64,000 nt of DNA, from the IMG/VR virus record IMGVR_UViG_3300035180_001847, positions 32,001 to 96,000 of that record; one strand, written 5' to 3'. Below the pieces are notes generated by a model. It made no database searches and had not been told where the DNA came from. It saw nothing but the letters and a program-made list of their open reading frames with translations. The DNA comes from a virus. This document shows positions 1,252 through 50,061 of the stretch, in pieces. Numbering within the stretch: the stretch's first letter is position 1; each line of letters begins with the position of its first letter. The position numbers were made by a program, and so were the translations under genes.

Positions 1252-1653
1252 TTATCGCGCCCAATATGTTACGCCGTCAAATTCTGATGAAGTGTAATCC
1301 TGTTTAAGATTTTCGGCGGTCTTCTCCCAATCTATGACGATCCAAGCGGGAAAATCTTGCGGAATATCTCCGAGGTCTTCTAAAAGTTCCTGTGTGTAGT
1401 CAACAAAATGAACCTCGTTGATTAGCGTCACAGGATACCAATCCCCGCGCCATTCCTCATCGCCACCATAACCCCGAAAGCCATCAATGAAATCTTGCAG
1501 TTGCGCGAGTTCAATACAATCATCGGATTCTTCCCATTCCGCCAATTTGTTATTTTCAAGAAGCGAGTCGCGGATGTCCTCCAGTTCCTCGATTCTCTTG
1601 AAAATATCACGAGAGTCTAGCACGTCCTGAGCGTTATTAATTTCGTTTGACAT
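1252..1653 (-). CDS. acidic ArdA-like antirestriction (DNA mimic) protein
   Basis: Very D/E-rich; C-terminal IPQDFPAWIVIDWEKTAENL resembles the ArdA IDYEAIARDL motif; early location. Confidence 0.55.
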   Translation of the reverse strand: MSNEINNAQDVLDSRDIFKRIEELEDIRDSLLENNKLAEWEESDDCIELAQLQDFIDGFRGYGGDEEWRGDWYPVTLINEVHFVDYTQELLEDLGDIPQDFPAWIVIDWEKTAENLKQDYTSSEFDGVTYWAR

Positions 1654-1719
1654 GGTATATATCCTTTTCTTTTTTGTGTTGTGTTGTGTTGTGTTGTCAA
1701 TCGTTTTCTATCTTGACGT

Positions 1720-1761
1720 TATTCTACACCCACGCCATAAAAACGTCAATAGCCAAATGTC
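1720..1761 (-). promoter_or_regulatory. sigma70-type promoter with upstream GTGACATTT box
   Basis: Minus strand GTGACATTT-GGCTA-TTGACG-N17-TAGAAT. Confidence 0.7.
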
Positions 1762-1987
1762 ACAAAGCTCCCATTACTTTAATCATATTGCTTTATGCAG
1801 CATTACGCGACTCTATGACCTTGCGAGTCATTCCAAGCAATTTTTCAAACAGATAAAACTCTCGCGCCTTAATTTTCAGTCGTTTTTTGGCGTGTTTTGA
1901 GCGTTTTAGGGTGTGTTTTTTATCACGGAATAGAGAAAATCCGCCATCGGTTAAGCGGATAGCGGATTTTCTGCCAACGATTGAGTT

Positions 1988-2185
1988 TTACAAGCCTTGC
2001 ATCAATCGCTTTGTTTTTGCGAGTTGTTTTTTCGTTGGCACGACAACCCAGGACATGACGGCGGAACGATCGCAGCCTTCGGCCTTGCAAACTAAATCTT
2101 TTGCCGATTCAAAGTCTTTTGCAAAAACACGAATTGAGGTGATGGCATTGTTGCGTTTAATTTCAAATTTAAATTGCTTTTTCAT
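1988..2185 (-). CDS. small hypothetical protein
   Basis: 65-aa ORF with AAGGA RBS, co-oriented with neighbours. Confidence 0.55.
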   Translation of the reverse strand: MKKQFKFEIKRNNAITSIRVFAKDFESAKDLVCKAEGCDRSAVMSWVVVPTKKQLAKTKRLMQGL

Positions 2186-2203
2186 TTTGATAATCCTTTT
2201 TTA

Positions 2204-2470
2204 TTATGCGGTATATCTATCATAGTTACGAATCGGACTATAATCCACCGATTCCTTTTCGACAATCTGAGGCTTGCAACCATAAGTGGCAATATAGGCA
2301 GTAAAAAATTTACTTGCATCGGAATCCTCTTCAAGATAGACGGTATTCCCGTTCTGGTAGGAATGGCTTGAAATTTCGCCATCGATTCCGAGTTTTACCA
2401 GTTCGGAACGCTTTACCGCCAACCAGCCGTGACCTGCATCAGAATAGAATTTATAGATTGGTTTTTTCAT
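2204..2470 (-). CDS. conserved phage hypothetical protein (SDAGHGWLAV ... YLEEDSD motifs)
   Basis: Recognisable DxGHGWLxV and YLEEDxD motifs; start moved to MKKPIY because the promoter -10 lies at 2501-2506. Confidence 0.7.
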   Translation of the reverse strand: MKKPIYKFYSDAGHGWLAVKRSELVKLGIDGEISSHSYQNGNTVYLEEDSDASKFFTAYIATYGCKPQIVEKESVDYSPIRNYDRYTA

Positions 2471-2500
2471 TTTCTTAATCCTCATTTCAAAGATAATATA

Positions 2501-2542
2501 ATTATATCTACTTTTTGCCATTTGTCAATGATGAAATGTCAT
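2501..2542 (-). promoter_or_regulatory. sigma70-type promoter with upstream ATGACATTT box
   Basis: Minus strand ATGACATTT-CATCA-TTGACA-N16-TATAAT. Confidence 0.75.
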
Positions 2543-2682
2543 AAGTTTGTCATATTATAGTCGGTCAAAAGTCACCATTATTTAACTCATCCAATTGACA
2601 AAAACCACCACTGATACACAGCCACCACACCAGACCTCGAACCTCCCGCGTGTTAATCACGTTAACCACGCCACCGAACCAC

Positions 2683-2710
2683 AAAAAGCCCGAAGTGTTT
2701 CAGGCTTTTT
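2683..2710 (-). terminator. intrinsic terminator
   Basis: AAAAAGCC...GGCTTTTT hairpin just after the stop of 2739..3125. Confidence 0.65.
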
Positions 2711-2738
2711 GTATTATTCTGGCCTAACCAAACATAAT

Positions 2739-3125
2739 CTAATCTAATTTCGATAAGATTTTAACCGCCTTGCATGTGATCTGGTATTCTCTGACAAGAT
2801 CGGAATCGGTTGCCGCTGCCTCTTCTTGCCATCGATAATCGAAAATTGATCTGTTTTCAATCTCTTTTTTTGCGTAATCTAGCAAGTATGACATGCTGCG
2901 CCCTGATAACTCATGAATAAAATCGGTGCCTTTGTTTTCTGGATACCATAGCAACCCGCCAAAACCGCCCTTAAAATAAACTAGGATTTTCTCGGTTGGA
3001 ACATGATAAAAAATCTTATAATGACCACTTAAGCCGCCGTCTTCATCCTTTAGATTTACTGCTAGATTCCATGCGTTAAGCGTTAAAATGGTTGGAGACA
3101 ATCGAAATACATTCATTTTAGCCAT
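2739..3125 (-). CDS. hypothetical early protein
   Basis: 128-aa ORF downstream of a CTGGCA-N17-TATAAT promoter with extended TG. Confidence 0.6.
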   Translation of the reverse strand: MAKMNVFRLSPTILTLNAWNLAVNLKDEDGGLSGHYKIFYHVPTEKILVYFKGGFGGLLWYPENKGTDFIHELSGRSMSYLLDYAKKEIENRSIFDYRWQEEAAATDSDLVREYQITCKAVKILSKLD

Positions 3126-3334
3126 CCTTTTTTATTTTTTGGCATAATTATTATAGCACAATCATCAAAAGCTGCCAGCAATCAACGCCATATTCGGAAT
3201 ATTACATTAATCACAACCCCATCACACCACACAACCCTACACCACACCGCCATAAAATGCTAGCATGACCTGGAACGGCCTAAATCTCGTTCCAGGTAAT
3301 GCTACAATCACCCATACTTGCCAGCAACTAGCAA

Positions 3335-3808
3335 TTAACTTAATTTGCTCTTAACGAGGTCTAGCGATAAATCCTCGATGTTGCCAGCCGCTAAGTCATC
3401 TTGCAATGACTTTTTGAGTTGAGCGAAAAACCGATCAAACGCATCAATGATTTTTTCCGGTTCGCCCTCGACTTTTCGGAACGGCAATTTTTTAAGGCTG
3501 TAGGTCTGATACCATTCTCGCGGTTTAATGAAGTAGCTTTTGTACTTGTTTTCTAACATGAGAGACGGTAAATCAGGGGCGGGCATATTGCCAAACACAA
3601 AAGCCCCATCAACCGAATCAATAACATGGAAGACGATGTTAAACATGTCATTCTCCCAATATCGGCGAATCAACTCAGATTCATCACCAGCCAAAAAAAG
3701 CCGGACGTGAATCGAGTGGCGCGATGGGGAGTGAACCATTATCTTACTTTTTGGAAAGTGAGAATGGTACGTTTTTTCAATATTGGTTATGAAATCTTGT
3801 GCGTTCAT
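3335..3808 (-). CDS. hypothetical early protein
   Basis: Start moved to MNAQDF, which follows a GAGGAG RBS. Confidence 0.65.
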   Translation of the reverse strand: MNAQDFITNIEKTYHSHFPKSKIMVHSPSRHSIHVRLFLAGDESELIRRYWENDMFNIVFHVIDSVDGAFVFGNMPAPDLPSLMLENKYKSYFIKPREWYQTYSLKKLPFRKVEGEPEKIIDAFDRFFAQLKKSLQDDLAAGNIEDLSLDLVKSKLS

Positions 3809-3891
3809 TTCGGACTCCTCTTGTTTGTTGATTGATTGATTGATTGATTCAATTTTACCGCAAGCTGCCAGCAATTACAAGATGATAAATG

Positions 3892-4116
3892 TCACGATTC
3901 GACTATGACAAACACCATCCTAATCTGATTAAAAAACTCTTCATCTGTGAATTGACCGGATTCAATCGGTCTACCGCTTGCGAGTCTGGAATTAACGCGC
4001 AGACGGTCACGATATAAGTCCGAGTCTGACATGGATTCGCGCAAAATTGCGCGCGCGGATTCGAATCGCGGTGTTTCCGTTGATTCTGTTTGATTCAATG
4101 TTACCATTCTTAACAT
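3892..4116 (-). CDS. small hypothetical protein rich in ES/DS dipeptides
   Basis: 74-aa ORF; composition dominated by GANTC-containing codon pairs. Confidence 0.4.
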   Translation of the reverse strand: MLRMVTLNQTESTETPRFESARAILRESMSDSDLYRDRLRVNSRLASGRPIESGQFTDEEFFNQIRMVFVIVES

Positions 4117-4189
4117 CCTTCGGCCTTATTTTATAATCTTAAGCTCTGACCGGAATTACGATTCCGGCCAGTGATTGAGGCCATAAATT

Positions 4190-4432
4190 TTATAGTTGAT
4201 TCAACGGCGATTCAAATTCCGATTCGAATTCTGCTTCAAGTTCTGCCGCGAGTTTTGCGGATTCAAGTCTGCGAACTCGCATGTCGTGTTTAAAATCTGC
4301 CACTGCCAACCGTTGAGTCGCCCGCCATCCTTGCGCCTCAAGTTTGAGGCATGACGATTTAACGCCCAGGTGAGGGAGGGGAGAGGCTTGAGTCTTGCGT
4401 GCTTTGTTTGTTTTGTTTGTTTTGGTTGTCAT
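4190..4432 (-). CDS. small hypothetical protein
   Basis: 80-aa ORF with AAGGA RBS. Confidence 0.55.
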   Translation of the reverse strand: MTTKTNKTNKARKTQASPLPHLGVKSSCLKLEAQGWRATQRLAVADFKHDMRVRRLESAKLAAELEAEFESEFESPLNQL

Positions 4433-4448
4433 GTTTTTTGTCCTTTTT

Positions 4449-5045
4449 TTAGAGTTTTTTATAATCAGGTTTATGCCATTTTAAGGCCTTCCTGTTAAAA
4501 ATTACGTCAAGCAGAATCAATCTTCCCGCTTCATCTACTTTTAAATTCCGCTTGTTAAATTCCAGCCTGTAGGAATCTCCATAGTTACCGCAAGCGTCTA
4601 CAAGCGATTCAAGCGATTCGATTATTGACGGTTCAATCTGGCCGCGTAAAGCCTCAATGATTTCATAGTTAAAATTATAATCTGATACTCCGACTCGGCA
4701 GTTTTTCCATGCCGATTCCAGGATTCTAAACTGTCTCCATGCGGTCTTATGTTTCGGAGTCAACGGTTGATATAGTTTAGATTTAAATAGCATCGTGCCA
4801 TCGTCAAAGACTCCGATCTTTTCAATCTCTGGCAAATGCTCACCTATCGCAAACTCGGCTATGGCTTCCTTGCTGTAATCCGTTTCCCGCCGTTGCTGTT
4901 TAACGAACGAGTAAACCACGCCGTCAACCTCATAACACGTAGCGAAACTGCCACGCCCCAGGAATCGGGCTTCAATCTTAACCGGCTCACCCCAGCCGTC
5001 AAGAATTGTAATCATTCTCAAGTCGCCTTTTTTCATGTTAGTCAT
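4449..5045 (-). CDS. protein-kinase-like fold protein
   Basis: Gly loop FLGRGSFATCY, catalytic-loop-like LEFNKRNL, metal-binding-like LILLD. Confidence 0.6.
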   Translation of the reverse strand: MTNMKKGDLRMITILDGWGEPVKIEARFLGRGSFATCYEVDGVVYSFVKQQRRETDYSKEAIAEFAIGEHLPEIEKIGVFDDGTMLFKSKLYQPLTPKHKTAWRQFRILESAWKNCRVGVSDYNFNYEIIEALRGQIEPSIIESLESLVDACGNYGDSYRLEFNKRNLKVDEAGRLILLDVIFNRKALKWHKPDYKKL

Positions 5046-5182
5046 CCTTTTCTTTTTTGGTATGGATGGATTTTAACCGATTCTCGTTGTGAGTCAAGGT
5101 TTTGCAAGGTGATTAATGTCATATATTTTTAAGTCAAATGTCATGAAACACTTGTTCTAATTTTTACATGGATTAAAAAATT

Positions 5183-5220
5183 AAACAAAAAGAGTCTAAT
5201 TCCTTAGACTCTTTTTGTTT
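5183..5220 (-). terminator. intrinsic terminator
   Basis: AAACAAAAAGAGTCTAA...TTAGACTCTTTTTGTTT perfect hairpin. Confidence 0.75.
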
Positions 5221-5231
5221 AATTTGATGGG

Positions 5232-5531
5232 TTAGGCGATATCTAGATTGCCCGCGCCGATGCTTGCCAGGTATGCGGATTCCGCGTCTCGCACCTCGCC
5301 TGCGATGTCATCAATGATTTTATTGATCGCGGCCTCGTGACTCTGGTATTCAGTCTCCCCGCGTCCCGTGATGGTATAAATTCGATTCGGACGCTCACCA
5401 TCACGCGGCGCAATGTAGGATATCTCTGTCATGTAATAGGGCGTGAACGGATCGAGATAAGCGGAATTAATGAGCTTTTCGAATCCAGTTGGCTCAGTGA
5501 TTAGTTTGGTTATCATGGATATAATCTTCAT
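5232..5531 (-). CDS. hypothetical early protein
   Basis: 99-aa ORF with AAGGAG RBS. Confidence 0.65.
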   Translation of the reverse strand: MKIISMITKLITEPTGFEKLINSAYLDPFTPYYMTEISYIAPRDGERPNRIYTITGRGETEYQSHEAAINKIIDDIAGEVRDAESAYLASIGAGNLDIA

Positions 5532-5739
5532 TTCAGACTCCTTCTTGTTTATTGATTGATTAATTGATTAATTTACTTAATGATCCCGACTGATACCAGG
5601 ATCGAGCGGATCAGGAACAAAACGGCGAAAATCAAAAAAGCTACGAAAATTTGGACGGGGACGGCGGAAAGTGTGAGATTCATGATTGATTATCCTTTTC
5701 TGTGTGTTTTTTGTTTTTTGATTTTTTTAATTTTTTAAT

Positions 5740-6087
5740 TTAAATTCCAAAGAGAGCGGCGATTCGAAATTTAAGATCGTTTATCGTTTCCGATTCTCGC
5801 GCAATCGCGGCGATTGCCGAAACATAACCGCCTGTATATCGATTGAGCATGACCGTTAACTGATCTGGAGTTTCCGCGCCCGCTTGCGCCATTTTATCCA
5901 CGATCTCAATCAGATCGTAACCAGTTTGACACCCTGCAATCTGTGCATCATACCCGACTCTCATCATATCGTAGGCCATCCTAACCAGTTGCGAGAGATC
6001 GCGCGATTTGACCTCGATCAGATCACCATCACACGGGGTTAAGATCATTTTATAAGATGGTTTTTTTTGTTTTTTTGTTGTGGTCAT
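5740..6087 (-). CDS. hypothetical early protein (first gene of the early block)
   Basis: 115-aa ORF with GAGGA RBS and upstream promoter. Confidence 0.65.
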   Translation of the reverse strand: MTTTKKQKKPSYKMILTPCDGDLIEVKSRDLSQLVRMAYDMMRVGYDAQIAGCQTGYDLIEIVDKMAQAGAETPDQLTVMLNRYTGGYVSAIAAIARESETINDLKFRIAALFGI

Positions 6088-6126
6088 TTCATCCTCTTTT
6101 GTTTTTTTGCTTTTTTGATTTGAATA

Positions 6127-6169
6127 ATTTTACTCGATTGATTGGTAAGGGTCAATAGTCAAATGTCAT
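6127..6169 (-). promoter_or_regulatory. sigma70-type promoter with upstream ATGACATTT box
   Basis: Minus strand ATGACATTT-GACTA-TTGACC-N17-TAAAAT. Confidence 0.7.
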
Positions 6170-6324
6170 AAAAATAATATAACAAACGTCATAATTCATT
6201 AATAGCGCGGATTGAAACGGCGCAGATTGAAACGAAGCCTAAAACGTCACCGAACCAGTAAACCAGCGAAGTACCAGCGGAACCGGAAACGTCACCGAGT
6301 CACTTCCCTTATTGGGCGCGTGGA

Positions 6325-6476
6325 TTATGTGTATATGTGTTTAGTTATGTGTTTATGGTTATGTCGTTATGGTTGTGTTTATATCGTGGTTGTGTGTTTA
6401 TTTGTTTATGTTTATATGTATATATGTATATATATGTATATGTGTATATGTATATGTGTATATATGTGTGTGTTGT
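6325..6476. repeat. low-complexity TATG/TATATG/GTTTAT tract
   Basis: Directly visible degenerate tandem repeats. Confidence 0.85.
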
Positions 6477-6979
6477 AATGATAGACATGGCTTAATTTAT
6501 GGCTATTATGTTTTTTTATATGTTCGGGACACAATCGGCCGACTCCGATCACGATCCAAACCATAAGACTATATACTATATATTGTTAAGATAATATATA
6601 ATTATCTTAACATATGACGGGGTGGTTTTAATTTTTCGATGTTTTTTGGATGACCCCGTCGGTTAAAGCTCATTAACCCACACACAAAACCATCACCCCA
6701 CATATAAATCTAAATCAACCCTAAACAACTAAACCTAATTCTACATAACCTTAAACAAAACCAAGAGAAAAGAGCGAAGCGATGAATAACCGCCCCGAAG
6801 GGGCTAAAGTGACAAACAAGAACGAGTTATTTCTATAAATTATTAGATAAGTGGATTAAATTTGATTCTAACGATTAATTTTGCACAATTAAATAAGAAC
6901 AGCCCTTTTCATAGGGCTGTTTAAGGTAATGTAGAATTAGAAATGGGTTTTTAGAGGGAACGACAGGGAGTGAAGGACG

Positions 6980-7047
6980 AAAAAAGTTGTCACCTTATAA
7001 CCAATACTTAATTAATTATATATATGTTTATAAAGTGACAACTTTTT
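6980..7047. repeat. long inverted repeat with AT-rich spacer
   Basis: AAAAAAGTTGTCACCTTATAA ... TTATAAAGTGACAACTTTTTT. Confidence 0.85.
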
Positions 7048-7050
7048 TGT

Positions 7051-8091
7051 TTATGGTAATCTTATCAGGTCATCGGTAAGGTATCTTTGATTGTATTCCC
7101 AATCCTTTGATGGGGGTGTAGGTTGTTCGTATTCATCTTTATCAATCATTTGCATAAATTTTTTTAATTCATTTTCATAATTCTCTTTCATTTTCAGATA
7201 CTTCTTTTTCGCATCTTTATTGACAAACGTGGCAAATTTTCCGTTCAGTGAATTTCTAAATTTTATTAATTCGTCGTATTCTTTTTTGTAAGAATCAAGA
7301 TTTTCTTCCAAATTATCTGTGCAGCCTATTAAAAATCCATATTGTAATTTATGAAGTCCCATTTGCTTTGCAACTTCTTCGTCCACGTTTCGATAAAATT
7401 CTGGTAGCCTTCCAATGAAAAATAATTTCCCAAGATTTTTTTGAGTAACATTTTCACTTAACATATTATTTAGGATTTTATTCTTTATGCTCAATATTTT
7501 ACTTTCCTCTTTATCCGTCGTGATTCTATCTTCTGTTCCATCGAATACCATGTGTCTTTTATCTACAAGTATGATGAAATTATCCTCTAAAACTTTTAGC
7601 GCGCTTTTAAGCATTTCTCTCATTTTAGCTTCTGTTCTAATATAAAATTCCTTCATATCTTTAATTTCAATATTTGTTGGACACTCACTGATATATGCTT
7701 CTATGGATTTTTTAGCTGGTAAGTATTTGCTATTTATCATTCCAGTTATTTCAAATATTTCTTTATGTGTAAGAAAAGTTCTCTTATCATCATTCACGAA
7801 AATTCTATCGTTTTTGTGTTCCGCCAGGTAATTTAACAATTGCACGGAAATATCCTCGACATAAATAGACCGATTTCCAAGTTTTCTATTATCAATTTTA
7901 GACAATTCATTTTTATATATTTTTTCAATTATAAGAGATTGACCATCTGATTTATTAAACTTGAAATATCTTTCAAGTTCTCTCATTTGATAAATCTTTG
8001 CTTTTCCAGTTTTTTCTTTAATATCAAGTAATACACAAAGTTCACGATAGTTTTTTATTATCTGACCCTCGGATATATTTCTAATGTTCAT
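7051..8091 (-). CDS. hypothetical basic DNA-binding (possibly replication-related) protein
   Basis: 346 aa from MNIRNI, overlapping the MTase stop; N-terminal IKNYRELCVLL...ELERYF winged-helix-like segment. Confidence 0.6.
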   Translation of the reverse strand: MNIRNISEGQIIKNYRELCVLLDIKEKTGKAKIYQMRELERYFKFNKSDGQSLIIEKIYKNELSKIDNRKLGNRSIYVEDISVQLLNYLAEHKNDRIFVNDDKRTFLTHKEIFEITGMINSKYLPAKKSIEAYISECPTNIEIKDMKEFYIRTEAKMREMLKSALKVLEDNFIILVDKRHMVFDGTEDRITTDKEESKILSIKNKILNNMLSENVTQKNLGKLFFIGRLPEFYRNVDEEVAKQMGLHKLQYGFLIGCTDNLEENLDSYKKEYDELIKFRNSLNGKFATFVNKDAKKKYLKMKENYENELKKFMQMIDKDEYEQPTPPSKDWEYNQRYLTDDLIRLP

Positions 8092-8833
8092 TGATTTGTT
8101 CCATCCTTTTCTTTGCAATTTCAAATATCTCTTCGTCCATTTCCATACCGATAAATTTACGCTTCAAATCTAAAGATGCTATTCCAGTGCTTCCACTGCC
8201 CATTGCATTATCTAAAACCACATCTCCTTCTAAAGTATAACTTTTTATTAAAAATTTTAACAATTCAACGGGCTTTTGAGATGTGTGTAACCTATTGTAA
8301 TTATCTACACACTTATATGTCAATAAATTGGTGGGATAACGGGTTGTATCCCCGCCCTGATAGTCTCTTTTATTTTCTCCCAAATAAGCTCCTCCGTAGG
8401 TTTTGCCCTTTGCCGAATTTGTGGGAATATGTCCATCTGTTTTTTGAGGATAATAAGAGCCATTGTAAAATATAACTATTTCTTCTATCTTACGCAATGG
8501 TTGTCTTTTGGCGTGGAGGAAATGAGTGGATTGATTTTTTTCCCAATACCAACAATATTTATAGTTTTTTCTATTGGATGTTATAAGGTCTGTGGTAAAA
8601 GGTTGTTGTCCAAATAGTGCAACCGTTCCTTTTGGAGATAAAATTCTTTTATATTGTTTCCAGAGAAGAGTTAGGTCTATTGACTTATCCCATTTTGAAG
8701 CAAGTTGTTTATAGGGAAGATCGGCAAGAATTAGGTTTATGGATTTGTCTGGAATATTTTTCATTAATTCTAAACAATCACCCCACCAAAGCTGCACATC
8801 TCTGTTTTCAATTTGATTATTTTCATCGTTCAT
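8081..8833 (-). CDS. DNA methyltransferase, beta class (N6A/N4C)
   Basis: ADLPY catalytic motif, HTSQKPVELL, VLDNAMGSGSTG SAM motif; start MNDENN after AAGGAG. Confidence 0.92.
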   Translation of the reverse strand: MNDENNQIENRDVQLWWGDCLELMKNIPDKSINLILADLPYKQLASKWDKSIDLTLLWKQYKRILSPKGTVALFGQQPFTTDLITSNRKNYKYCWYWEKNQSTHFLHAKRQPLRKIEEIVIFYNGSYYPQKTDGHIPTNSAKGKTYGGAYLGENKRDYQGGDTTRYPTNLLTYKCVDNYNRLHTSQKPVELLKFLIKSYTLEGDVVLDNAMGSGSTGIASLDLKRKFIGMEMDEEIFEIAKKRMEQINEH

Positions 8834-8907
8834 GTTTTTCTCCTTGTGAAATATTATTGAATATGAAATATCATCATATTTAATAATATATAAATATCTA
8901 AACTCAA

Positions 8908-8936
8908 ATTTTACCACCTCGCGTCAAACTTGTCAA
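8908..8936 (-). promoter_or_regulatory. sigma70-type promoter (leftward)
   Basis: Minus strand TTGACA-N17-TAAAAT with extended TG. Confidence 0.75.
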
Positions 8937-8956
8937 TATCCTTGATTTCAACACTC

Positions 8957-8985
8957 TTGACAAATAAAATCTTTTATGATATACT
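8957..8985 (+). promoter_or_regulatory. sigma70-type promoter (rightward) in front of the cassette array
   Basis: TTGACA-N17-TATACT with extended TG. Confidence 0.75.
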
Positions 8986-9023
8986 GTTAAAAATAGAATA
9001 TTGTATTTTTAGGAGTTTGGACA

Positions 9024-11626: not shown

Positions 11627-14359
11627 TTGTCCCGAAAAATACAATCCTTTTATGTATTAAAATTAGAAAGCGAAAAACTAAAAAAACACGGATATAAAAT
11701 TAAAATAGATTTGAACGAGGCAAGAAAAAACAATGAAGTGGTATCATTGGCAAATAGTCAAATGATACGGACGATACAAGAAGTTATAAAATCAAGTTAT
11801 TCTCAGAAAAAATTAGATAGATTAGTAAAAAGAAAAAAAGCATTAGGAAATCAAAAAAATAAATCGATTTATCGAAAAGAATTGAGCGATATTCAAAATG
11901 AAATAGATAAGTTATTGTTTATTCCTGAATTGATAGTAATTCATTTTAATCATACATCACATTATAAAACAATTATTAAAAAGGGTCTTTTTATAAATGA
12001 CAAAGAATATGTTAGATTAATGACGGGAGCGGGTCACGCTCGTCGTAATTCCAGTATCTTCATTGAAAAAAATATTTGGATGAATGTCAATGAAATATTT
12101 GAAAATGGAAGAAACAAAAACGTTCCTCTAGTGTATAGCAAGTATAATGCCTATTATGGACTTTATGCTTCGGCAACTCAACCCGTCTCATTTCCTCGTA
12201 TAGCAGTTGTGCCAGACCTTGAATTGGAATTTATAAGAACATTTGATTTTGTTGAAGAAGTCGAACAGGAAGATGATTTGGTTTATGAAAAAATAATGCC
12301 CGTCAAGCAAAATATTTTTGATGGTATGGGATTGATAAGCATTGAATTTGCGAAACAATGGCAGTCAGACCTTGAACTTGATTATCTTCCATCTGGATTT
12401 ATATTTAGAGGGGGATTTTTCAAAGGAATGCTTGCAACATTTGATATAAAAATGTTTGCCAAAGAAAATAATTCTTTTGAAATAAAAGATGTTTGGGGAA
12501 ATATTCATAATGTAAAAGATATTGATATTATTGCAACCCAATCACAATTCAAATTATGGATGTGCTATAATTCAATTGATGACTACCGTGAAAACTGTGT
12601 AAAAAACAATATTGGATTTGGGGTAAGCAGAGTTTCTCCAAAAAAACAAAAAGATTTTTTTTATTCATCATATCAATATTTACAGGTATTGAATGAAGAT
12701 AAAGTCAATATTGAAAAATTATGTGAACCAACCTTAAATTATTTCAAAGATGTTTCTTCTGATGATGCTAATAAGGCAATTTTATATTTATTGGGCGATA
12801 AGGATTATCAAGATTTAGAAAAATTATTCGAGCAAATTGATAATAACGTGTTGAAAGCGCTCATGATAAATAAAAATGTCATAAAAGATAATCATATAAA
12901 AAACCATATTTTCAAGACTATTAATAAAAAGATACGAAATTCCTTCATGGGGAATCTTATTCTTGATGGATGTTATCAAATGAATATTGCTGATCCTGTG
13001 GCTTTCATGCAACACGCTCTGGGTCTTTTGGTAACGGGATTGCTAAAAGATAAAGAATATTATTCTAAATACTGGTCATCAAGAAAAATAAATAAAATCG
13101 CAACGGGTAGAAGTCCTTTAACTTGGAGAAGTGAATTAAATGTCTTAAATCTTATTGACAATAATGATACTGAGAAATGGTACAAATATTTGAGTGACGG
13201 GATTATAACCAATATTTATGGTGATGACAACTATCGTTGGGCGGATTCCGATATGGATGGTGATTTGATTTTTTCTACATCTAATGAATACTTGATAAAT
13301 GGGGCATTTGGCGGAAATCCAATCACATATAATCGTGACTCTGGAAATAAGGATATTATAAATACCGATGAATTATATAAAAGCGATATTGATAGTTATG
13401 GTTCGCGCATTGGTGTTTTAACCAATTATTCAACAACATCGTATTCAATGCTTTCCATGTTTGGTAACAAGGACAGTGAAGAATATAAAACCATTATAAA
13501 TAGATTGAAAATAACAAGAAAAAATCAGGGTCAGGAAATTGATAAGGCGAAATTGGGCGGATTTATAAAACCAATTCCTGAATGGGCTAAGTATAGGCAC
13601 ATAAAAAATTCCATGACCGAAGAAGAAAAAAATAAAATTAGGCTTCACAATAGACTTCTTCTTGATCGTCGTCCTTTGTGGATGATTTATCTTTATCCTC
13701 ACAAAATGAATGAATTTCGTCGTTTCAATAAGATATATGAAAACTATGTTCAAAGTAAAATGGGATTTTCTCTGGAAACATTGTTGAATAAAAAAGATAG
13801 AAACAAGAAGGAAAACGACATTTATAATAGTTATGTAAGATATTCTCCATTTATTGTTGAAGATAAGTCTATTATGATGAAGATTTATCAATATATGATT
13901 CAATCTGTTCGTGAACATAAACTTAAGATGAAAAACGATTCATTGACATTTGATTATACCATATATCTAAATAAATCCATCCCTAAAAACTCATATAAAC
14001 TGCAACAGATGGAAAATTTACTAAAAGAATATAAGTCCGCTAAAAAGAATTTATCTGTTACCAATAATTTTGAAAACAAAGAACAAGTCTTTTCTATTTT
14101 GAGAAATAAGGCTGAATTTAATATAAGTAATAATATATCAGAATTAACAAATTTGGCTGTTGAGGTTTGTTATGAAAAAGGAACTGTAAATTCAAGGCAA
14201 TTTGTTTTTGATCTGTTTGGCGATGGTATTATTCAGAATCTCTTGACAAATAATGGAAATAAGATTATGATACCAGTTCTTACTGAACCATCTGGAGATT
14301 TGGAATTTCTTGGAAAACACTATTCATTGAAAGAGGTTAAAATAAATAATGTCGTATAA
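11627..14359 (+). CDS. yonO: YonO-like single-subunit two-barrel RNA polymerase
   Basis: 910 aa; FDGMGLIS, RGGFFKGML, GRSP and ADSDMDGD (DxDGD) motifs; position upstream of late genes as in SPbeta. Confidence 0.9.
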   Translation: MSRKIQSFYVLKLESEKLKKHGYKIKIDLNEARKNNEVVSLANSQMIRTIQEVIKSSYSQKKLDRLVKRKKALGNQKNKSIYRKELSDIQNEIDKLLFIPELIVIHFNHTSHYKTIIKKGLFINDKEYVRLMTGAGHARRNSSIFIEKNIWMNVNEIFENGRNKNVPLVYSKYNAYYGLYASATQPVSFPRIAVVPDLELEFIRTFDFVEEVEQEDDLVYEKIMPVKQNIFDGMGLISIEFAKQWQSDLELDYLPSGFIFRGGFFKGMLATFDIKMFAKENNSFEIKDVWGNIHNVKDIDIIATQSQFKLWMCYNSIDDYRENCVKNNIGFGVSRVSPKKQKDFFYSSYQYLQVLNEDKVNIEKLCEPTLNYFKDVSSDDANKAILYLLGDKDYQDLEKLFEQIDNNVLKALMINKNVIKDNHIKNHIFKTINKKIRNSFMGNLILDGCYQMNIADPVAFMQHALGLLVTGLLKDKEYYSKYWSSRKINKIATGRSPLTWRSELNVLNLIDNNDTEKWYKYLSDGIITNIYGDDNYRWADSDMDGDLIFSTSNEYLINGAFGGNPITYNRDSGNKDIINTDELYKSDIDSYGSRIGVLTNYSTTSYSMLSMFGNKDSEEYKTIINRLKITRKNQGQEIDKAKLGGFIKPIPEWAKYRHIKNSMTEEEKNKIRLHNRLLLDRRPLWMIYLYPHKMNEFRRFNKIYENYVQSKMGFSLETLLNKKDRNKKENDIYNSYVRYSPFIVEDKSIMMKIYQYMIQSVREHKLKMKNDSLTFDYTIYLNKSIPKNSYKLQQMENLLKEYKSAKKNLSVTNNFENKEQVFSILRNKAEFNISNNISELTNLAVEVCYEKGTVNSRQFVFDLFGDGIIQNLLTNNGNKIMIPVLTEPSGDLEFLGKHYSLKEVKINNVV

Positions 14360-15436: not shown

Positions 15437-15853
15437 ATGACCGGAAAACGAAGTAAACCAAAAAACGAAAATTTTCTTGATACTGACCAATTTGCACGAG
15501 AGCTTGCTCAAAGAGCAAAGTTCTCTTTAAGTGATACCAAAATATTCATGAAGGAATATCAAGGTATATTCGAGGATTGTATTGAACAAAACATAGATAT
15601 TGATTTAAGGGGTTTTGTACATTTATATATACAGACAATTCCGGCGCACGAGGGAAACAATGCAAGAGAATCGAGGCTTAGAGGCGGTGAGCCAGTTAAA
15701 CAATGGTTTCCCGAATCAAAAAGAATTACAATTAAGGTTGCAAAAAACTTGACGGATATTCTTCGGAGTCCTGAAAAGAAAAAAATTCAAAATTCCAAAT
15801 CTACAAAAGATGCCTTACGTCAAATGACCTTGGATGAAAATATGGGTGGATAA
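15437..15853 (+). CDS. HU/IHF-like DNA-binding protein
   Basis: ELAQRAKFSLSD...IDLRGF...GNN...FPESKRITIK follows the HU pattern; YonN-like position. Confidence 0.75.
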   Translation: MTGKRSKPKNENFLDTDQFARELAQRAKFSLSDTKIFMKEYQGIFEDCIEQNIDIDLRGFVHLYIQTIPAHEGNNARESRLRGGEPVKQWFPESKRITIKVAKNLTDILRSPEKKKIQNSKSTKDALRQMTLDENMGG

Positions 15854-15865
15854 AGAGGTTGTTTT

Positions 15866-16306
15866 ATGAACTCATTAGCTGTCAAACCCGTTACAAATGA
15901 GATCGTTCAGGTGAAAACTCAAATAAGAAGATTTTGTTCTTGTTGCGGTGCATTTGTCAGAGGTGAAGATTATCATTGTACCATGCGACCTATTGAACTT
16001 AGATACATCATTGGCGCATCTATTTATGTGGAATGGCCTTATATTTGGAAAACAAATGAATATGGTTCGGGGAATAGGTATAAATATTTTTTAAAGCCAA
16101 TTAGAGTTATTTTGAAAAATGGTCAATTCTTTAGTTCCAGAGAAATTGTTGGTGAGAATGGTGGCAGCATATATATTGGAGCATTTCAGACTTTTGATGC
16201 CATTGAATTACATGAAAAAAATAAGGAATTATGGCCTACGGTTGAACAAGCCGAAAGAGCCGTTCATCATCCAGATGAAATTTTATATTCCAATTTTATG
16301 GGATGA
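15866..16306 (+). CDS. hypothetical protein
   Basis: 146-aa ORF with GAGG RBS. Confidence 0.65.
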   Translation: MNSLAVKPVTNEIVQVKTQIRRFCSCCGAFVRGEDYHCTMRPIELRYIIGASIYVEWPYIWKTNEYGSGNRYKYFLKPIRVILKNGQFFSSREIVGENGGSIYIGAFQTFDAIELHEKNKELWPTVEQAERAVHHPDEILYSNFMG

Positions 16307-16419
16307 ATTTTTATAAACAACTAAATAAATAGGCTTTTTTAAGTGCTTGATTATTTAATTTTTATAAAAATGCTTTTTTGAAGATATATTTTATTTCTAC
16401 GAGAGAGGAAAAAATAAAG

Positions 16420-16647
16420 ATGAATTTAAATGATAGAACCGTGAAATATTTCAATACGGACAATCGATGGGTCGGTATTGATCCAGAAAACATTAAAGAG
16501 GGTATGACTTTTCAAGTTTTTGAATTGAATGGTTCTCCGGTTATTCAAGATCGCGCGGCAATTTTTACCGCCGCGTCCGATTCCAAAAATATTGGAGGAA
16601 TCATAACTGTACAAGTTATCATAGACCCCGCATTCCAAGTTTTTTAG
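16420..16647 (+). CDS. small hypothetical protein
   Basis: Start MNLNDR after a GAGGA RBS. Confidence 0.6.
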   Translation: MNLNDRTVKYFNTDNRWVGIDPENIKEGMTFQVFELNGSPVIQDRAAIFTAASDSKNIGGIITVQVIIDPAFQVF

Positions 16648-16719
16648 AAATCAAGATAGAAAAAAGTGAAATCTTTGAAAAATAAATGTGATAAATAAAT
16701 TGATAGATGAGAATTTATA

Positions 16720-16911
16720 ATGAAACATTCAGCAAGAAAAATTAGTAAAAAATATCTGCCCAAAGGCTTGATTCGTAAATTGGATAAAAGTGATGGAAAG
16801 AGAAAATGGTTTTTAGGAAAAGATAAAAAATGGGATACGCTTCATCAAGTTGTGCTTGATTTAGGATACACGCCGGAAAAGAAATCATTGGATTCCCGCA
16901 AAGACATCTAA
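16720..16911 (+). CDS. small basic hypothetical protein
   Basis: 63-aa ORF. Confidence 0.5.
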   Translation: MKHSARKISKKYLPKGLIRKLDKSDGKRKWFLGKDKKWDTLHQVVLDLGYTPEKKSLDSRKDI

Positions 16912-16963
16912 CAAGCCATTTAAAGTAATGAAAGAGTAATTTTATGAACGGAGGAGGCGAAAT

Positions 16964-17356
16964 ATGAGCGATTATGTTTTAACGGGTTTCACCACCAATG
17001 TTCTTACAATTCCAAATATAACAACGGCGGATGATTTATTTTTTACGGTAAAAGCCGATTTATCTCTTGATGATACTCATAGTATTTTAAAAATATCTCA
17101 AACAGCAGGATTGTTGATTTTATATGGACAAACTATTCCAATAAACGGAACGAATATTATAACATCCAACGATGGTTCAATTGCCATATCTGGATTGAAT
17201 CTTATTGTGACATTAAGTGCGTTAGCTTCAAGCGCTCTGCCCAATGCCGTTGGATTATTTGGAGATATTCGATCTAAAACAATAATTGGGAATATTATAT
17301 CTGTTCAAAAAAGTTTTACGTTGGATATAAATTATCCAGTTGGTCATTCGATTTAA
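16964..17356 (+). CDS. hypothetical beta-rich protein
   Basis: 130-aa ORF, strong GGAGGAGG RBS. Confidence 0.7.
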   Translation: MSDYVLTGFTTNVLTIPNITTADDLFFTVKADLSLDDTHSILKISQTAGLLILYGQTIPINGTNIITSNDGSIAISGLNLIVTLSALASSALPNAVGLFGDIRSKTIIGNIISVQKSFTLDINYPVGHSI

Positions 17357-38938: not shown

Positions 38939-41900
38939 ATGGCGGCTAAAGATTATACATTATTATTGAAAGCATCCATCGATTCAACTACACTGCAATC
39001 TCAAATAGATGCCTTGTCTGAGAAATATTCAATTAACTTAAAGATAAATGCAGATGATACGGCAATAGCCAATTTACAGACTAAAGTGCAACAGGTACAA
39101 TCTCAATTAGCACAAACTCCAAATACCGATTGGATAAATGCTATGAGTACCGAAGAAGCATTAGATATAATTAAACAAAAAATTGAAGATATACAAGCAT
39201 CTGGAAAAGGCATGAACGTTGGATATACAATATCCAGTGTTCCCGCGCAGGATGAAAATGGCGATTCTTTTGATGCGGTTACTAAAGCCACAATGAGTTA
39301 TACTGATGCTCTTGGAAATTTACAAACAGCGACATTGAAATATGATGAATCTTCCAATATGCTTGTTGAATCCAACAACAAACTTTCTGAGAGCATGGCT
39401 CAAATTCAATCTCAAGCAATAAAAGAAAATGCTATTTTTGACGCGCAACAAAAAACAATAGAGAGATTACAAACCTCTGCCAGTGAATTTTTGGCTAAAT
39501 CAAAATTATTAGATCAAGGTAATCCAAATGTCCAAAGTGCGGTTGCAATTGCCAAACAAATGACTGATGGCGCGGATAGGTCATCCGAAGAAATGATTAA
39601 ACTTGGGGAAGCTCTAAAAATTGCTAAAGCGGGAATTGATGGCACTAAAGTATCCGCTTTATCCTTTGCTGAAGGCATGAGAAATGCAATTGTTAGAACC
39701 ACTGAGTATGCTTTATCAGTGGGTTTATTGTATGGAGCTTTAAATCAATTGAAACAAGGTATTCAATATATCATTGATTTGAATGCTGAAATGACAAAAA
39801 TTCAAGTATTACAGGTTGAAGGTGCAAAAACAACGGAGCAAATAAATTCTTTGGCTGGGAGTTTCAACAATTTAGCTAAAGAATTGGGGACAACGACCAT
39901 AGAAGTTGCAAAAGGCAGTGTGGAATGGTTGCGGCAGGGTAAGACAATTGCTGAAACACAAGAACTGATTAAATCAACAATGATGTTGAGCAAGTTGGGT
40001 GCATTGGATTCCGCTTCTGCAACTGAGGATTTGACGGCTGTTTTGAATGGATTTCAAATGCAGGCTAGTGATGCGAGTAGGGTTGTAGATAAGTTGGTTG
40101 CAATAGATAACATAGCGGCAACCTCGGCGGGAGAATTATCTTCAGCATTACAATATTCTTCTGCCGTTGCAAATGAAACGGGTGTTTCATTTGATAACCT
40201 GACGGCATATATTGCAACAGCATCTTCACGAACAAGATTGAGCGCAGAGATGATTGGACAAGCATTCCGAACAATGTTTACAAGAATGCAATCAGTGAAA
40301 TCTGGTGCAATAGATGAAACTGGAATGAATTTGAATGCTGTTGAAAAATCCCTTCATGGAGTTGGAATAGCTTTAAGAGATTCAACAGATTCGTTTAGGC
40401 CTTTGGAAGATGTAATTGCTGATGTTGCTGGAAAATGGAAAACATTAGATGAAGTTCAACGCGCTCAAATTGCAACGGCAATTGCTGGTCAACGTCAATC
40501 ACAAATATTTCAAGTATTGATGCAAAATTGGGGAGATGTAGCCAAATATGTTTCCGCTGAAACAGATTCGGTTGGATTGGCTACACAACGTTACGACATA
40601 TATTTGAAATCTGTTGCCGCATCTCAAGCTAAGTTTGCAGATTCCCTACAGGCATTATGGCAATCAACCATTTCATCTGGAATGATAACGTGGTGGATAG
40701 ATTTGGGAACGGCTTTGCTGAATGTTTTTTCAAATGCGGGTGGATTAAATTCGGTTATTTTAATTTTGACGGAAAGTTTTTTGATTTGGAAAAGTGCCGC
40801 CATTGGTGGTGCAATAGCATCTTTGTTTGATTTTGTGTCAACTGTCAAATCGGCGAATGCCGCTTTATTGGTAATGGATGCTGAAATTGACGCGAATCCT
40901 CTTGGATTATTTGCTGCTGCTTTGGCCGCTGTAACTATTGGAGTAATGGCTTGGAAAAATTCAATTCAAACCACTGATGATAAAATAAAATCATTAAACA
41001 AAGATATAGATGATTTAAATTCAAAATTAAATAAGGATAAAAGTGGTGCTGACAACCTGAGAAGTTTAACATCCGAGTTGGAAAATTTAAGGTCAAAAAC
41101 AAGTTTGACAATAGATGAACAACAAAGGATGTTTGATATCCAACAGCAGATACGAGATATTTTACCGAGCGTGGCGGGACATTATGATGACGAAGGGCAT
41201 TTCATATTAGATGATAGCGTATCTTTATCAAAATTAGTTGATTTAAAAAATCAAGAATTGGAATTGGATAGAAAAAAGCTGGAAGAAAAAACCATCGATA
41301 GAATAAAGACAGAGACGCAAGCATATAAAGAGCAAATTGCCGTCCTTGATAGAATGGTTCATCCAGTCACAGAAAGACAGTATGTTCCTGGAAAAGGCAT
41401 GACGTTTATATCACCAGAAGATATTGCCAATCAAAAACAAGCCATTGCTGATTTGATTGATAGCATAAAAAGCGATTTTTCTGGATTAACTCTTACAGAA
41501 CAAAGAAATCAAATAAAAATGATTTCGGATGCGCTTCAAGGAATGGGAACTACGGGAAAAGTTGCCGCTCAAGAATTAGCAACATCATTAACGAATGCGC
41601 TAGAAGCGGTTTCTCATGATGCAAGAGATAATAAGACTGCCATTCAATCAATAAATGAAACATATCAAGATTTTCAATCTACAATAAAAACTCTCACGGA
41701 CACTAATAAAATCCTTGATGATTTGATGGCTAAATCTGAAACGGGAAAATTTACATATTCAGATATTGAAGCATTGGCAAAAGCATATCCTGATTACTTA
41801 AATGTTCTTAGAGATGAAAATGGTCAATTAACCATAAACACCGATGCAATTAGACAATATCAAGTTGCACAGGCTAAGGCCGCGCTTGCTTCGGCGCAAA

Positions 41901-48465: not shown

Positions 48466-50061
48466 ATGACAACTACTACTCCAAATTTGGGGTTGACGTT
48501 ATATGATTCTTCAACTGATACATCTGTGCTATTTTCAACCTTTCGGGCTGTTTGGGGCGGGACAGCACCGACATCAAATTTCTATAAAATAGATACCGCT
48601 TATGGGGTTCAAGCCTCTCAGATTGCAAATTTAATGAATACGCGAGGTGCAATTCCAGTTTCAGCATTATTTAGTTCTGCAAATTATTATGTTGCAAATG
48701 GGGTTTCAGACATTACAGCATACACGGCAGGAATGACAATTATCTTGAATGTTGATACGACAAGTAACGGAACTGTAACACTGAACATAAATTCGCTTGG
48801 AATTATTTCTGTTATGAAGGTTGATTCAACTGGAACTCCAATAAATTTGACGGGTTCAGATTTAGTCAAAGGCAGACAATACTTAATGGTTTACGATGGA
48901 GCGAGATGGCTTTGGGTTTCCGCTAATTCTGCTGACCAAATTCAAATTGTTGGAACATCTGGAAATGTTGTAACCGTTGGAGCTACTAATAATTTGGATG
49001 GTTCTTTAACACAATCATCACTTATATCCAATACATTACATGCCGCAATAGTTAAAACAACTTTGAATGATAATGATGAATTTGGTATATCAGATAGTGC
49101 CGCATCCAATATTCTTAAAAAAGCAACGTGGGCAAATATTAGGGCAACGCTCAAAACATATTTAGACACCCTATATATGTCTTTGGTTGCCCCTGGTGCA
49201 TCCGGCAACGTAATGACATCAAATGGCTCGGCGTGGGTATCATCTGTACCAAGTAAATTGCCATTCAATGGCACATACGGAGATGGCTCAGATGGTGACG
49301 CAACCATTTCCAGTACCGTTACGCTCACACGCGACATGTTTTATAACAATCTAACTATTACTGGCTCTGGCGTGTTAATTCCCGCCGGATATATTATCTA
49401 TGTGAGCGGCAACCTTACCATTCAGTCAGGTGGCATCATTGCCGCGAATGGCTCAAATGGCGCGATTGGTTCAGGTGGCAACGGTGGTGCAGGCGGTGCT
49501 GGGGCGGTTGGAACAACATTGCATTATCCAATAGCAACCAGTGGTAGCGCAGGTGGTAACAGCGGCGGCGTTGGAACGGTAAACGGCACAAGCGGCACAT
49601 CTGGGGTATCACAAAACACTTCGACCCTTGCGCCCATATCGATGAGAGCGGGTGGTGGTGGCGGTGGTGGTGGCGGACATGGTTCATCTCCCACCAATGG
49701 CAGTAATTCAGCAGGCTCCTTATTCGGTGCAAGAGGTGGAAACGGCGGAGCTACAACCAGCACAACAAACATTTCCTCTGCTGGTGGTGGTGGCGGCGGC
49801 GGTGGCGGAGTTATTGATGTGCGCGCATACATTATCGGTAACGCTGGTTCAATTCAGGCACTTGGCGGTAACGGTGGAGACGCGCAAGGCGGAGCCAACG
49901 GTGGTGGTGGCGGTGGTGGCGGTGGTGGTTGTATTTCTGTCATCTATCACTCAACCACTGGAAACGGAATTGGAACTCTCAACGTCAACGGCGGCGCGGC
50001 TGGTGCTAGTGGTTCAGCTTCGGTGGGTGCTAATGGATATACAATGACAACGCAAATTTAA
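48466..50061 (+). CDS. tail fibre/receptor-binding protein with glycine-rich C-terminus
   Basis: MTTTTPNLGL start, YGDGSDG motif, poly-Gly tracts. Confidence 0.8.
   Translation: MTTTTPNLGLTLYDSSTDTSVLFSTFRAVWGGTAPTSNFYKIDTAYGVQASQIANLMNTRGAIPVSALFSSANYYVANGVSDITAYTAGMTIILNVDTTSNGTVTLNINSLGIISVMKVDSTGTPINLTGSDLVKGRQYLMVYDGARWLWVSANSADQIQIVGTSGNVVTVGATNNLDGSLTQSSLISNTLHAAIVKTTLNDNDEFGISDSAASNILKKATWANIRATLKTYLDTLYMSLVAPGASGNVMTSNGSAWVSSVPSKLPFNGTYGDGSDGDATISSTVTLTRDMFYNNLTITGSGVLIPAGYIIYVSGNLTIQSGGIIAANGSNGAIGSGGNGGAGGAGAVGTTLHYPIATSGSAGGNSGGVGTVNGTSGTSGVSQNTSTLAPISMRAGGGGGGGGGHGSSPTNGSNSAGSLFGARGGNGGATTSTTNISSAGGGGGGGGGVIDVRAYIIGNAGSIQALGGNGGDAQGGANGGGGGGGGGGCISVIYHSTTGNGIGTLNVNGGAAGASGSASVGANGYTMTTQI

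Follow-up and report, generated by a model that had tools for sequence, protein, structure and literature searches.

A dense GANTC island coincides with one early transcription unit of an uncultured phage

The early transcription unit and its surroundings

The window analysed here is a stretch of 64,000 nucleotides, bases 32001–96000 of a 105,455-bp IMG/VR record of an uncultured phage with terminal repeats; positions are those of the window unless the genome is named. The locus lies in a leftward arm that forms a multi-promoter early region, with promoters of the sigma-70 type and a dyad operator. Within it, an island of GANTC sites matches one leftward early transcription unit, composed of a promoter, a kinase-like gene, a pair of small ORFs and the 5′ part of the gene that follows. 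The promoter of this unit (5070–5097, minus strand, TTGACT-16-TAAAAT) carries one GANTC over its −35 box and another in its spacer; no GANTC is found near the promoters at 6155 and 2528. A perfect 20–22-bp hairpin terminator (5179–5224, minus strand), with one GANTC in each arm, marks the right edge of the island.

The kinase-like gene (4449–5045, minus strand) encodes a 198-aa protein of the T7 gp0.7 type that matches phrog_11084, and contains 10 GANTC sites versus 4.4 ± 1.2 in synonymous shuffles. The protein belongs to a family conserved in phages, with a Gly-rich loop and RNL..D motifs (kinase-like catalytic motifs). The Pfam-A search gave no match for the 198-aa protein; its Atlas neighbours carry PF27024 (Phage_T7_kinase), and the fold resembles that of kinases. 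Small kinase-like proteins of this type are widespread in uncultured phages. The two small ORFs of the unit are both on the minus strand, preceded by a ribosome-binding site and without a known family: an 80-aa ORF (4190–4432) with 6 GANTC, and a 74-aa ORF (3892–4116) with 9 GANTC (40 per kb) and six Glu/Asp-Ser dipeptides where 1.4 are expected. The next gene (3335–3811, minus strand), a 158-aa early gene matching phrog_21515, contributes its 5′ part as the left edge of the island.

A 14-bp dyad operator, RTGAYAWWTRTCAY (3882–3895, unstranded), adjoins an internal early promoter and recurs at early promoters elsewhere, namely at genome positions 18409 and 28147. The dyad or its half, RTGAYAWWTRTCAY / GTCAAATGTCA, was observed at window positions 144, 1745, 2524, 3882, 5134 and 6151 and at genome positions 18396 and 28134; at many early promoters of leftward orientation it sits just upstream of the −35 box. 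It has the appearance of an early operator used phage-wide. We assign the block to the early region because of its sigma-70-type promoters with this phage-wide operator, its T7-type kinase, and a weakly ArdA-like gene (1252–1653) that has homologues in many phages. To the left of the island, a weakly enriched shoulder (1400–3600, minus strand) with four small early genes, the ArdA-like one among them, holds 13 GANTC versus 7.6 ± 2.6 expected, a marginal excess. To the right, the neighbouring early unit (5250–6100, minus strand) has 9 GANTC versus 6.0 (not significant) and 13 GATC versus 7.5, i.e. GATC is not purged there. These GATC sites, 13 of the 106 in the genome, fall within 720 bp (5325–6043); as a co-cluster they were set aside, being marginal against the local null (p 0.03) and outside the island.

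GANTC excess and its origin at the DNA level

Regional counts of GANTC and GATC were compared with dinucleotide-preserving shuffles. The island proper (3600–5250, unstranded) holds 36 GANTC sites in 1.65 kb (22 per kb), about 4.5 times the 8.0 ± 2.7 expected. The preliminary description of this DNA had counted 18 sites between 3813 and 4394 and about 32 up to 5210 by eye; a direct count gave exactly these numbers, with the last sites at 4390 and 5207. The corresponding expectations are 4.0 ± 1.8 for the 18 sites in 3810–4394 and 6.6 ± 2.4 for 31 sites in 3810–5210, and over the wider interval 3600–5800 we find 44 sites versus 12.2 ± 3.1. When the 105,455-bp genome is divided into 1-kb bins, window positions 4001–5000 reach 23 GANTC per kb compared with about 3 per kb elsewhere; the next-highest bins contain at most 13, and this is the single such peak genome-wide. 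A uniform enrichment across the genome, which the preliminary description had named as a possible objection, does not apply, as the excess is local to 3600–5250. In the rest of the genome GANTC is close to expectation and not purged (O/E 0.86), whereas GATC is strongly purged (O/E 0.25). The island itself contains 1 GATC site versus 8.1 ± 2.7 expected.

Ranking all 4-mers, 5-mers, xxNxx words and 6-bp palindromes in 3600–5250 against local shuffles placed GANTC at the top (z 9.1). Both GAWTC and GASTC add to the excess, and all four centre bases are enriched. A longer motif surrounding the sites was rejected, a weak Y-GANTC-R preference being all that is seen in the flanks. Enrichment of every centre base together with weak flanks indicates that the word itself is the unit, which fits an enzyme of HinfI/CcrM specificity. 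The sites are spaced slightly more evenly than random (CV 0.74; random mean 0.96, 5th percentile 0.76), and short spacings occur at about chance frequency. No helical, lattice or fixed spacing was significant: the best period, 10.25 bp, has a power of 7.1, and the null maximum has a mean of 7.0 and a 95th percentile of 12.2. Dense but unphased sites would suit a factor that works site by site. Two sources of trivial enrichment were discarded. Tandem repeats are limited to two tiny arrays (12 nt × 3 and 9 nt × 2), and other early genes with a GC content of 0.40–0.52 have 0–9 GANTC per kb, which excludes GC content as the cause.

About 80% of the island sites are intragenic. A protein-level origin was weighed as one explanation: early proteins of acidic character in which Glu/Asp-Ser is frequent, such as substrates of the kinase encoded with them, might yield GANTC accidentally, as the two residues can be written with this word. 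In keeping with such a by-product, 17 of the 36 intragenic sites of the six core genes lie in codon phase 0 as Glu/Asp-Ser. Moreover, across the ten genes from 1252 to 6087 these dipeptides reach 20.6 per 1000 aa versus 7.6 elsewhere, a 2.7-fold enrichment. Conversely, the excess is three- to fourfold in phases 1 and 2 as well (17, 9 and 10 sites in phases 0, 1 and 2 versus 5.8, 2.1 and 2.4 expected), and non-coding DNA holds 9 GANTC in 576 nt (15.6 per kb). The amino-acid- and codon-matched null suggested in the preliminary description leaves the excess in place: the four core genes carry 29 sites, compared with 16.4 ± 2.0 in synonymous shuffles that keep the protein and 7.3 ± 2.4 in codon-order shuffles. 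The serine codon is likewise affected, since serine after Glu/Asp is written TCN in 24 of 24 cases in the ten genes, versus 70% in other contexts of the same genes (p 0.002) and 68% in Glu/Asp-Ser elsewhere in the genome (p 0.0002). The synonymous-shuffle, per-phase, non-coding and serine-codon tests thus largely refute a cause at the protein level, and an accidental by-product is scarcely credible.

The excess acts at the DNA level, at a price that can be measured in codon choice and in protein sequence. The earlier proposal that GANTC shapes the encoded proteins is upheld by the dipeptide density and the uniform TCN usage. Its emphasis on Glu-Ser and Asp-Ser codon pairs stands as far as their enrichment is concerned but was too narrow, given that phases 1 and 2 and non-coding DNA are equally enriched. 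The dipeptides are the easiest among several ways to write GANTC, and it is the word that shapes the proteins.

Relatives, genome background and methyltransferases

A profile search with the kinase family returned 67 metagenome loci and one genome locus. Relatives with 99% identity to this phage are represented by L088 and L089. Comparison with relatives, as advised in the preliminary description, revealed three distant, independent uncultured contigs that are also rich in GANTC: L011 (one phage with L012), L024 and L078. They have a GC content of 31–35%, contain no GATC, and have the kinase gene alone in common with the window, at 44–51% identity. L011 holds 35 GANTC in 3.2 kb versus 8.8 ± 2.8 expected, L024 10 in 1.2 kb and L078 67 in 5.6 kb, corresponding to 11–12 per kb for L011 and L078. 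Within the kinase gene we count 10 sites in the window, 9 in L011, 12 in L078 and 4 in the partial gene of L024, compared with 0–5 in each of seven homologues without an excess. Only about 3 alignment columns with GANTC are common to the GANTC-rich kinase genes, which implies that density is kept while positions turn over. That three distant relatives show the excess, with the sites largely at other positions, speaks for selection on the DNA word. As a side observation, a HicA-like toxin gene (L078, 3490–3699) directly follows the kinase homologue in L078.

The island is absent from the cultured phage PMBT24 of Enterocloster, whose genome is laid out in the same way and lacks GATC over 100 kb, and from two portal-related IMG/VR contigs (G002 and G003). 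It is also absent from the complete 165-kb phage G005, which encodes a kinase homologue and seven PF01555 genes; a local cluster in this phage (L008/G005, 15 sites in 1.5 kb) was judged modest. Another apparent cluster, at 12420–12690 of L047, proved to be an artefact near a distant homologue of the kinase, where tandem GCAGAGTCAGCA / GCACGGTCAGCA units mimic a cluster of GAGTC. Comparing the window DNA with the phage collection gave no match, and a search of IMG/VR for longer relatives by way of the kinase, P0005 and the L078 neighbour gene found none.

By sequence comparison, the backbone of the phage is similar to that of Bacillota phages: for both the major tail protein and Pol III alpha, the best matches from cultured phages all belong to phages of this phylum. 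Homologues of the kinase and of the ArdA-like gene belong mostly to phages of Proteobacteria and Actinobacteria, those of the latter gene including Caulobacter and Erythrobacter phages. A Burkholderiales host, as the MAG label of L078 would imply, was rejected; the contig is mis-binned, judging from its GC content of 0.315 versus 0.55–0.56 for the Burkholderiales MAG. The leftward arm (genome 8–41 kb) is a mosaic of early genes whose GC content varies from 0.25 to 0.52 from gene to gene, which fits frequent import of accessory genes. The genes of the island have a GC content of 0.41–0.49, compared with 0.29–0.33 for their neighbours and about 31% for the backbone.

Beyond the neighbouring early unit lies a repeat-rich stretch of about 950 bp of non-coding DNA (6100–7050), outside the island. 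It contains (TATGTGTA)n-type repeats at 6326–6473, the direct repeats GATTGAAACG and AAACGTCACCGA, and two long inverted repeats (6721–6757/6918–6954 and 6980–7003/7025–7048). The cumulative GC-skew minimum is located near 8000–9000, likewise outside the island. As the non-coding stretch is 1–2 kb from this minimum and from the point of divergent transcription, it is a candidate origin or control region.

The preliminary description had invoked methyltransferases of the phage, and seven DNA methyltransferase genes are indeed present: three of the PF01555 family, at genome positions 15622–16377, 16398–17327 and 40081–40917, together with a fragment, a single C5 enzyme and two of the Dam-like kind. 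The nearest to the island (8081–8917, minus strand) is a beta-class N6/N4 enzyme of PF01555 with a DPPY-type motif and a candidate writer of GANTC methylation. Still, the idea that one of these enzymes targets GANTC could not be substantiated, as comparison with the CcrM model and with PDB structures left none of them assignable to the word. None of the PF01555 enzymes is a CcrM orthologue by the NCBIfam model NF050803, scoring 92, 72 and 65 bits versus a cut-off of 830 bits. In the PDB, CcrM either ranks below further beta-class enzymes or is matched solely over the C-terminal cofactor region; of the solved structures, the closest relatives have a different recognition word or resemble the phage enzymes in the cofactor domain alone. 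For the reader GcrA (PF07750), the phage genome gave no match even at E ≤ 1. PADLOC returned generic methyltransferase models and nothing else, and Rfam nothing relevant. It should be noted that GATC is about fourfold depleted genome-wide despite the two Dam-like methyltransferase genes.

A gene for a 357-aa protein (7051–8124) shares 44 nt with the end of the nearest methyltransferase gene and is translationally coupled to it. The protein has no family, few homologues and no sequence match in the PDB. Its AF2 model (pLDDT 68) gave non-significant fold matches (best E 0.07), several of them to proteins containing a winged helix. The protein may bind DNA as a partner of the methyltransferase.

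Candidate explanations and known systems

The island most likely results from selection on the DNA itself, in view of the enrichment in all codon phases and in spacers, its recurrence, and the turnover of positions. Positive selection had already been proposed from the sequence alone, and both the matched null and the recurrence in three distant relatives support it. For the nature of the selected signal, we rank first, albeit tentatively, a dense block of adenine-methylation sites on the early unit. GANTC is a classic adenine-methylation site, the target of HinfI- and CcrM-type enzymes; this, the dense and unphased arrangement of the sites, and the richness of the phage in methyltransferases determine the ranking. 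The early “host-takeover” unit would have been selected to carry about 22 GANTC sites per kb as targets of N6-adenine methylation, and would become densely methylated by one of the three beta-class adenine/N4 methyltransferases of the phage or by a host enzyme. Such a mark may act on the whole stretch rather than on single operators, and could either tell methylated parental DNA apart from freshly replicated DNA or modulate transcription of the unit. Methylation as the relevant chemistry, its writer and its reader are all parts of the model that we infer. The two GANTC sites in the unit's own promoter count in favour of methylation. Against it stand the 165-kb phage described above, with seven PF01555 genes and no island, and a 54%-identical relative of the nearest methyltransferase that sits in a GANTC-depleted contig, as well as the failure to assign any methyltransferase to the word and to find GcrA in the phage. 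Also counting against it, we know of no mechanism that requires 36 sites spread through coding DNA.

The island may alternatively be a trace of past history on which selection no longer acts, the kinase unit having been imported as a cassette from a GANTC-rich, GATC-free phage lineage in which the pattern was perhaps genome-wide. The GC mosaic of the early region and the GC step between the island and its neighbours agree with an import, as does the different vocabulary of the adjoining unit, in which GATC is not purged. The pattern is seen solely in relatives that share the kinase, and these are GANTC-rich over their whole short length; moreover, the nearest cultured homologues of genes in the wider early block are found in phages of Proteobacteria and Actinobacteria, unlike those of the backbone. 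However, the island is equipped with the phage's own early promoters and dyad operator, and the GANTC-rich relatives, with their low GC content, were not the donor. A kinase identity of 44–51% implies that the pattern has persisted through long divergence, and the kinase homologues P0002–P0004, which are 87–88% identical, gain and lose Glu/Asp-Ser dipeptides at the protein level. A relic of import seems somewhat unlikely and, even if correct, would move the selection to be explained into another lineage.

Direct reading of the word by a sequence-specific DNA-binding protein of phage or host, coating or marking the early unit independently of methylation, would account for enrichment in coding and non-coding DNA alike and for the slightly even spacing. 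The coupled 357-aa protein with its weak winged-helix matches could be such a binder, but these matches are not significant. Neither a helical or fixed spacing nor an extended flanking consensus was detected, and besides the kinase no candidate binder is common to the window and the GANTC-rich relatives. We regard a methylation-independent binder as unlikely. The preliminary description had also considered a decoy or sink that draws a GANTC-specific restriction enzyme or a methylation-sensing factor of the host away from the rest of the genome. The location in an early region adjoining a weakly ArdA-like gene is in its favour, but adding cleavable sites to one and the same molecule would do harm rather than protect it. 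Furthermore, the near-expected frequency of GANTC in the backbone, in contrast to that of GATC, gives no sign of GANTC-directed restriction pressure. The decoy claim is thus left without support and is very improbable.

Turning back to methylation, the closest precedent for its use with this word is the CcrM/GcrA system of Alphaproteobacteria, in which GANTC-bearing promoters are reportedly under epigenetic control (work associated with Fioravanti in 2013 and Haakonsen in 2015). The phage has the same five-base word, a promoter in which GANTC overlaps the −35 box and recurs in the spacer, and beta-class adenine methyltransferases that belong to the superfamily of CcrM. It differs in lacking a CcrM orthologue and GcrA, in having most island sites inside genes instead of promoters, and in a backbone whose nearest cultured relatives infect Bacillota, where to our knowledge the CcrM/GcrA module does not occur. 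Nor do we know of any described GcrA promoter near the density of the island, 22 per kb over 1.65 kb. A broader reading, which we consider possible with the balance leaning against it, is that early cassettes carry a selected dense GANTC code read by a writer/reader pair beyond alphaproteobacterial CcrM/GcrA, as a general epigenetic or protein-docking mark that travels with them.

Clusters of adenine-methylation sites are known from E. coli oriC (GATC, SeqA sequestration), phage P1 pac and the phage Mu mom promoter, and the Caulobacter origin carries a GANTC cluster. These clusters resemble the island in being local pile-ups of a short adenine-methylation palindrome kept by selection. They occupy tens to a few hundred non-coding bases beside a known machine (initiator, terminase or OxyR), whereas the island spans a whole operon of 1.65 kb, is mostly coding and unphased, and has no known partner. 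Judged as a cluster of the origin or pac type, i.e. less than 0.3 kb of non-coding DNA beside an initiator, iterons or a terminase, the island does not qualify, and the terminase is 16 kb away. The HIP1 word of cyanobacteria (GCGATCGC) is likewise a methylase-type palindrome present far above expectation at a cost to coding sequence. HIP1 is enriched genome-wide; the GANTC excess stays within a single transcription unit, and elsewhere in the genome the word occurs about as often as expected. Reading of GANTC without methylation is exemplified by TraM, a ribbon-helix-helix protein that binds the word at sbmA–C of F-like plasmids. TraM sites form a few pairs at fixed spacing (about 12 bp) on one helical face; the island shows no such spacing, and no TraM-like gene was found in the phage.

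Short palindromes open to attack by restriction systems are expected to be lost from phage genomes. The present phage sheds GATC yet piles up GANTC at a cost to codons and proteins, which implies an unrecognised DNA-level signal in the first-expressed genes. If the signal is methylation, it would constitute a new format of epigenetic switch in phages, spanning an operon instead of an operator; should the host belong to Bacillota, GANTC-based signalling would extend beyond Alphaproteobacteria. The features that set the island apart are the Bacillota-like backbone, the lack of CcrM and GcrA homologues and the tie to a single transcription unit. In the literature searched we found no paper on a local GANTC excess in phage early genes. 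Genome-wide depletion of GANTC has been described in pelagiphage clades (PMC9516812), where GANTC density is likewise an evolving trait of phage genomes, although there it takes the form of whole-genome depletion and here of a local excess.

Outside the early region, the strongest word cluster of the genome consists of CCNCC/CCACC, with 41 occurrences in 1.5 kb (48466–50061). It coincides with a late ORF of 531 aa (GC 50%) that gave no Pfam match, and probably reflects a repeat rich in Pro and Thr within a fibre or tail protein. Similar clusters are present in PMBT24.
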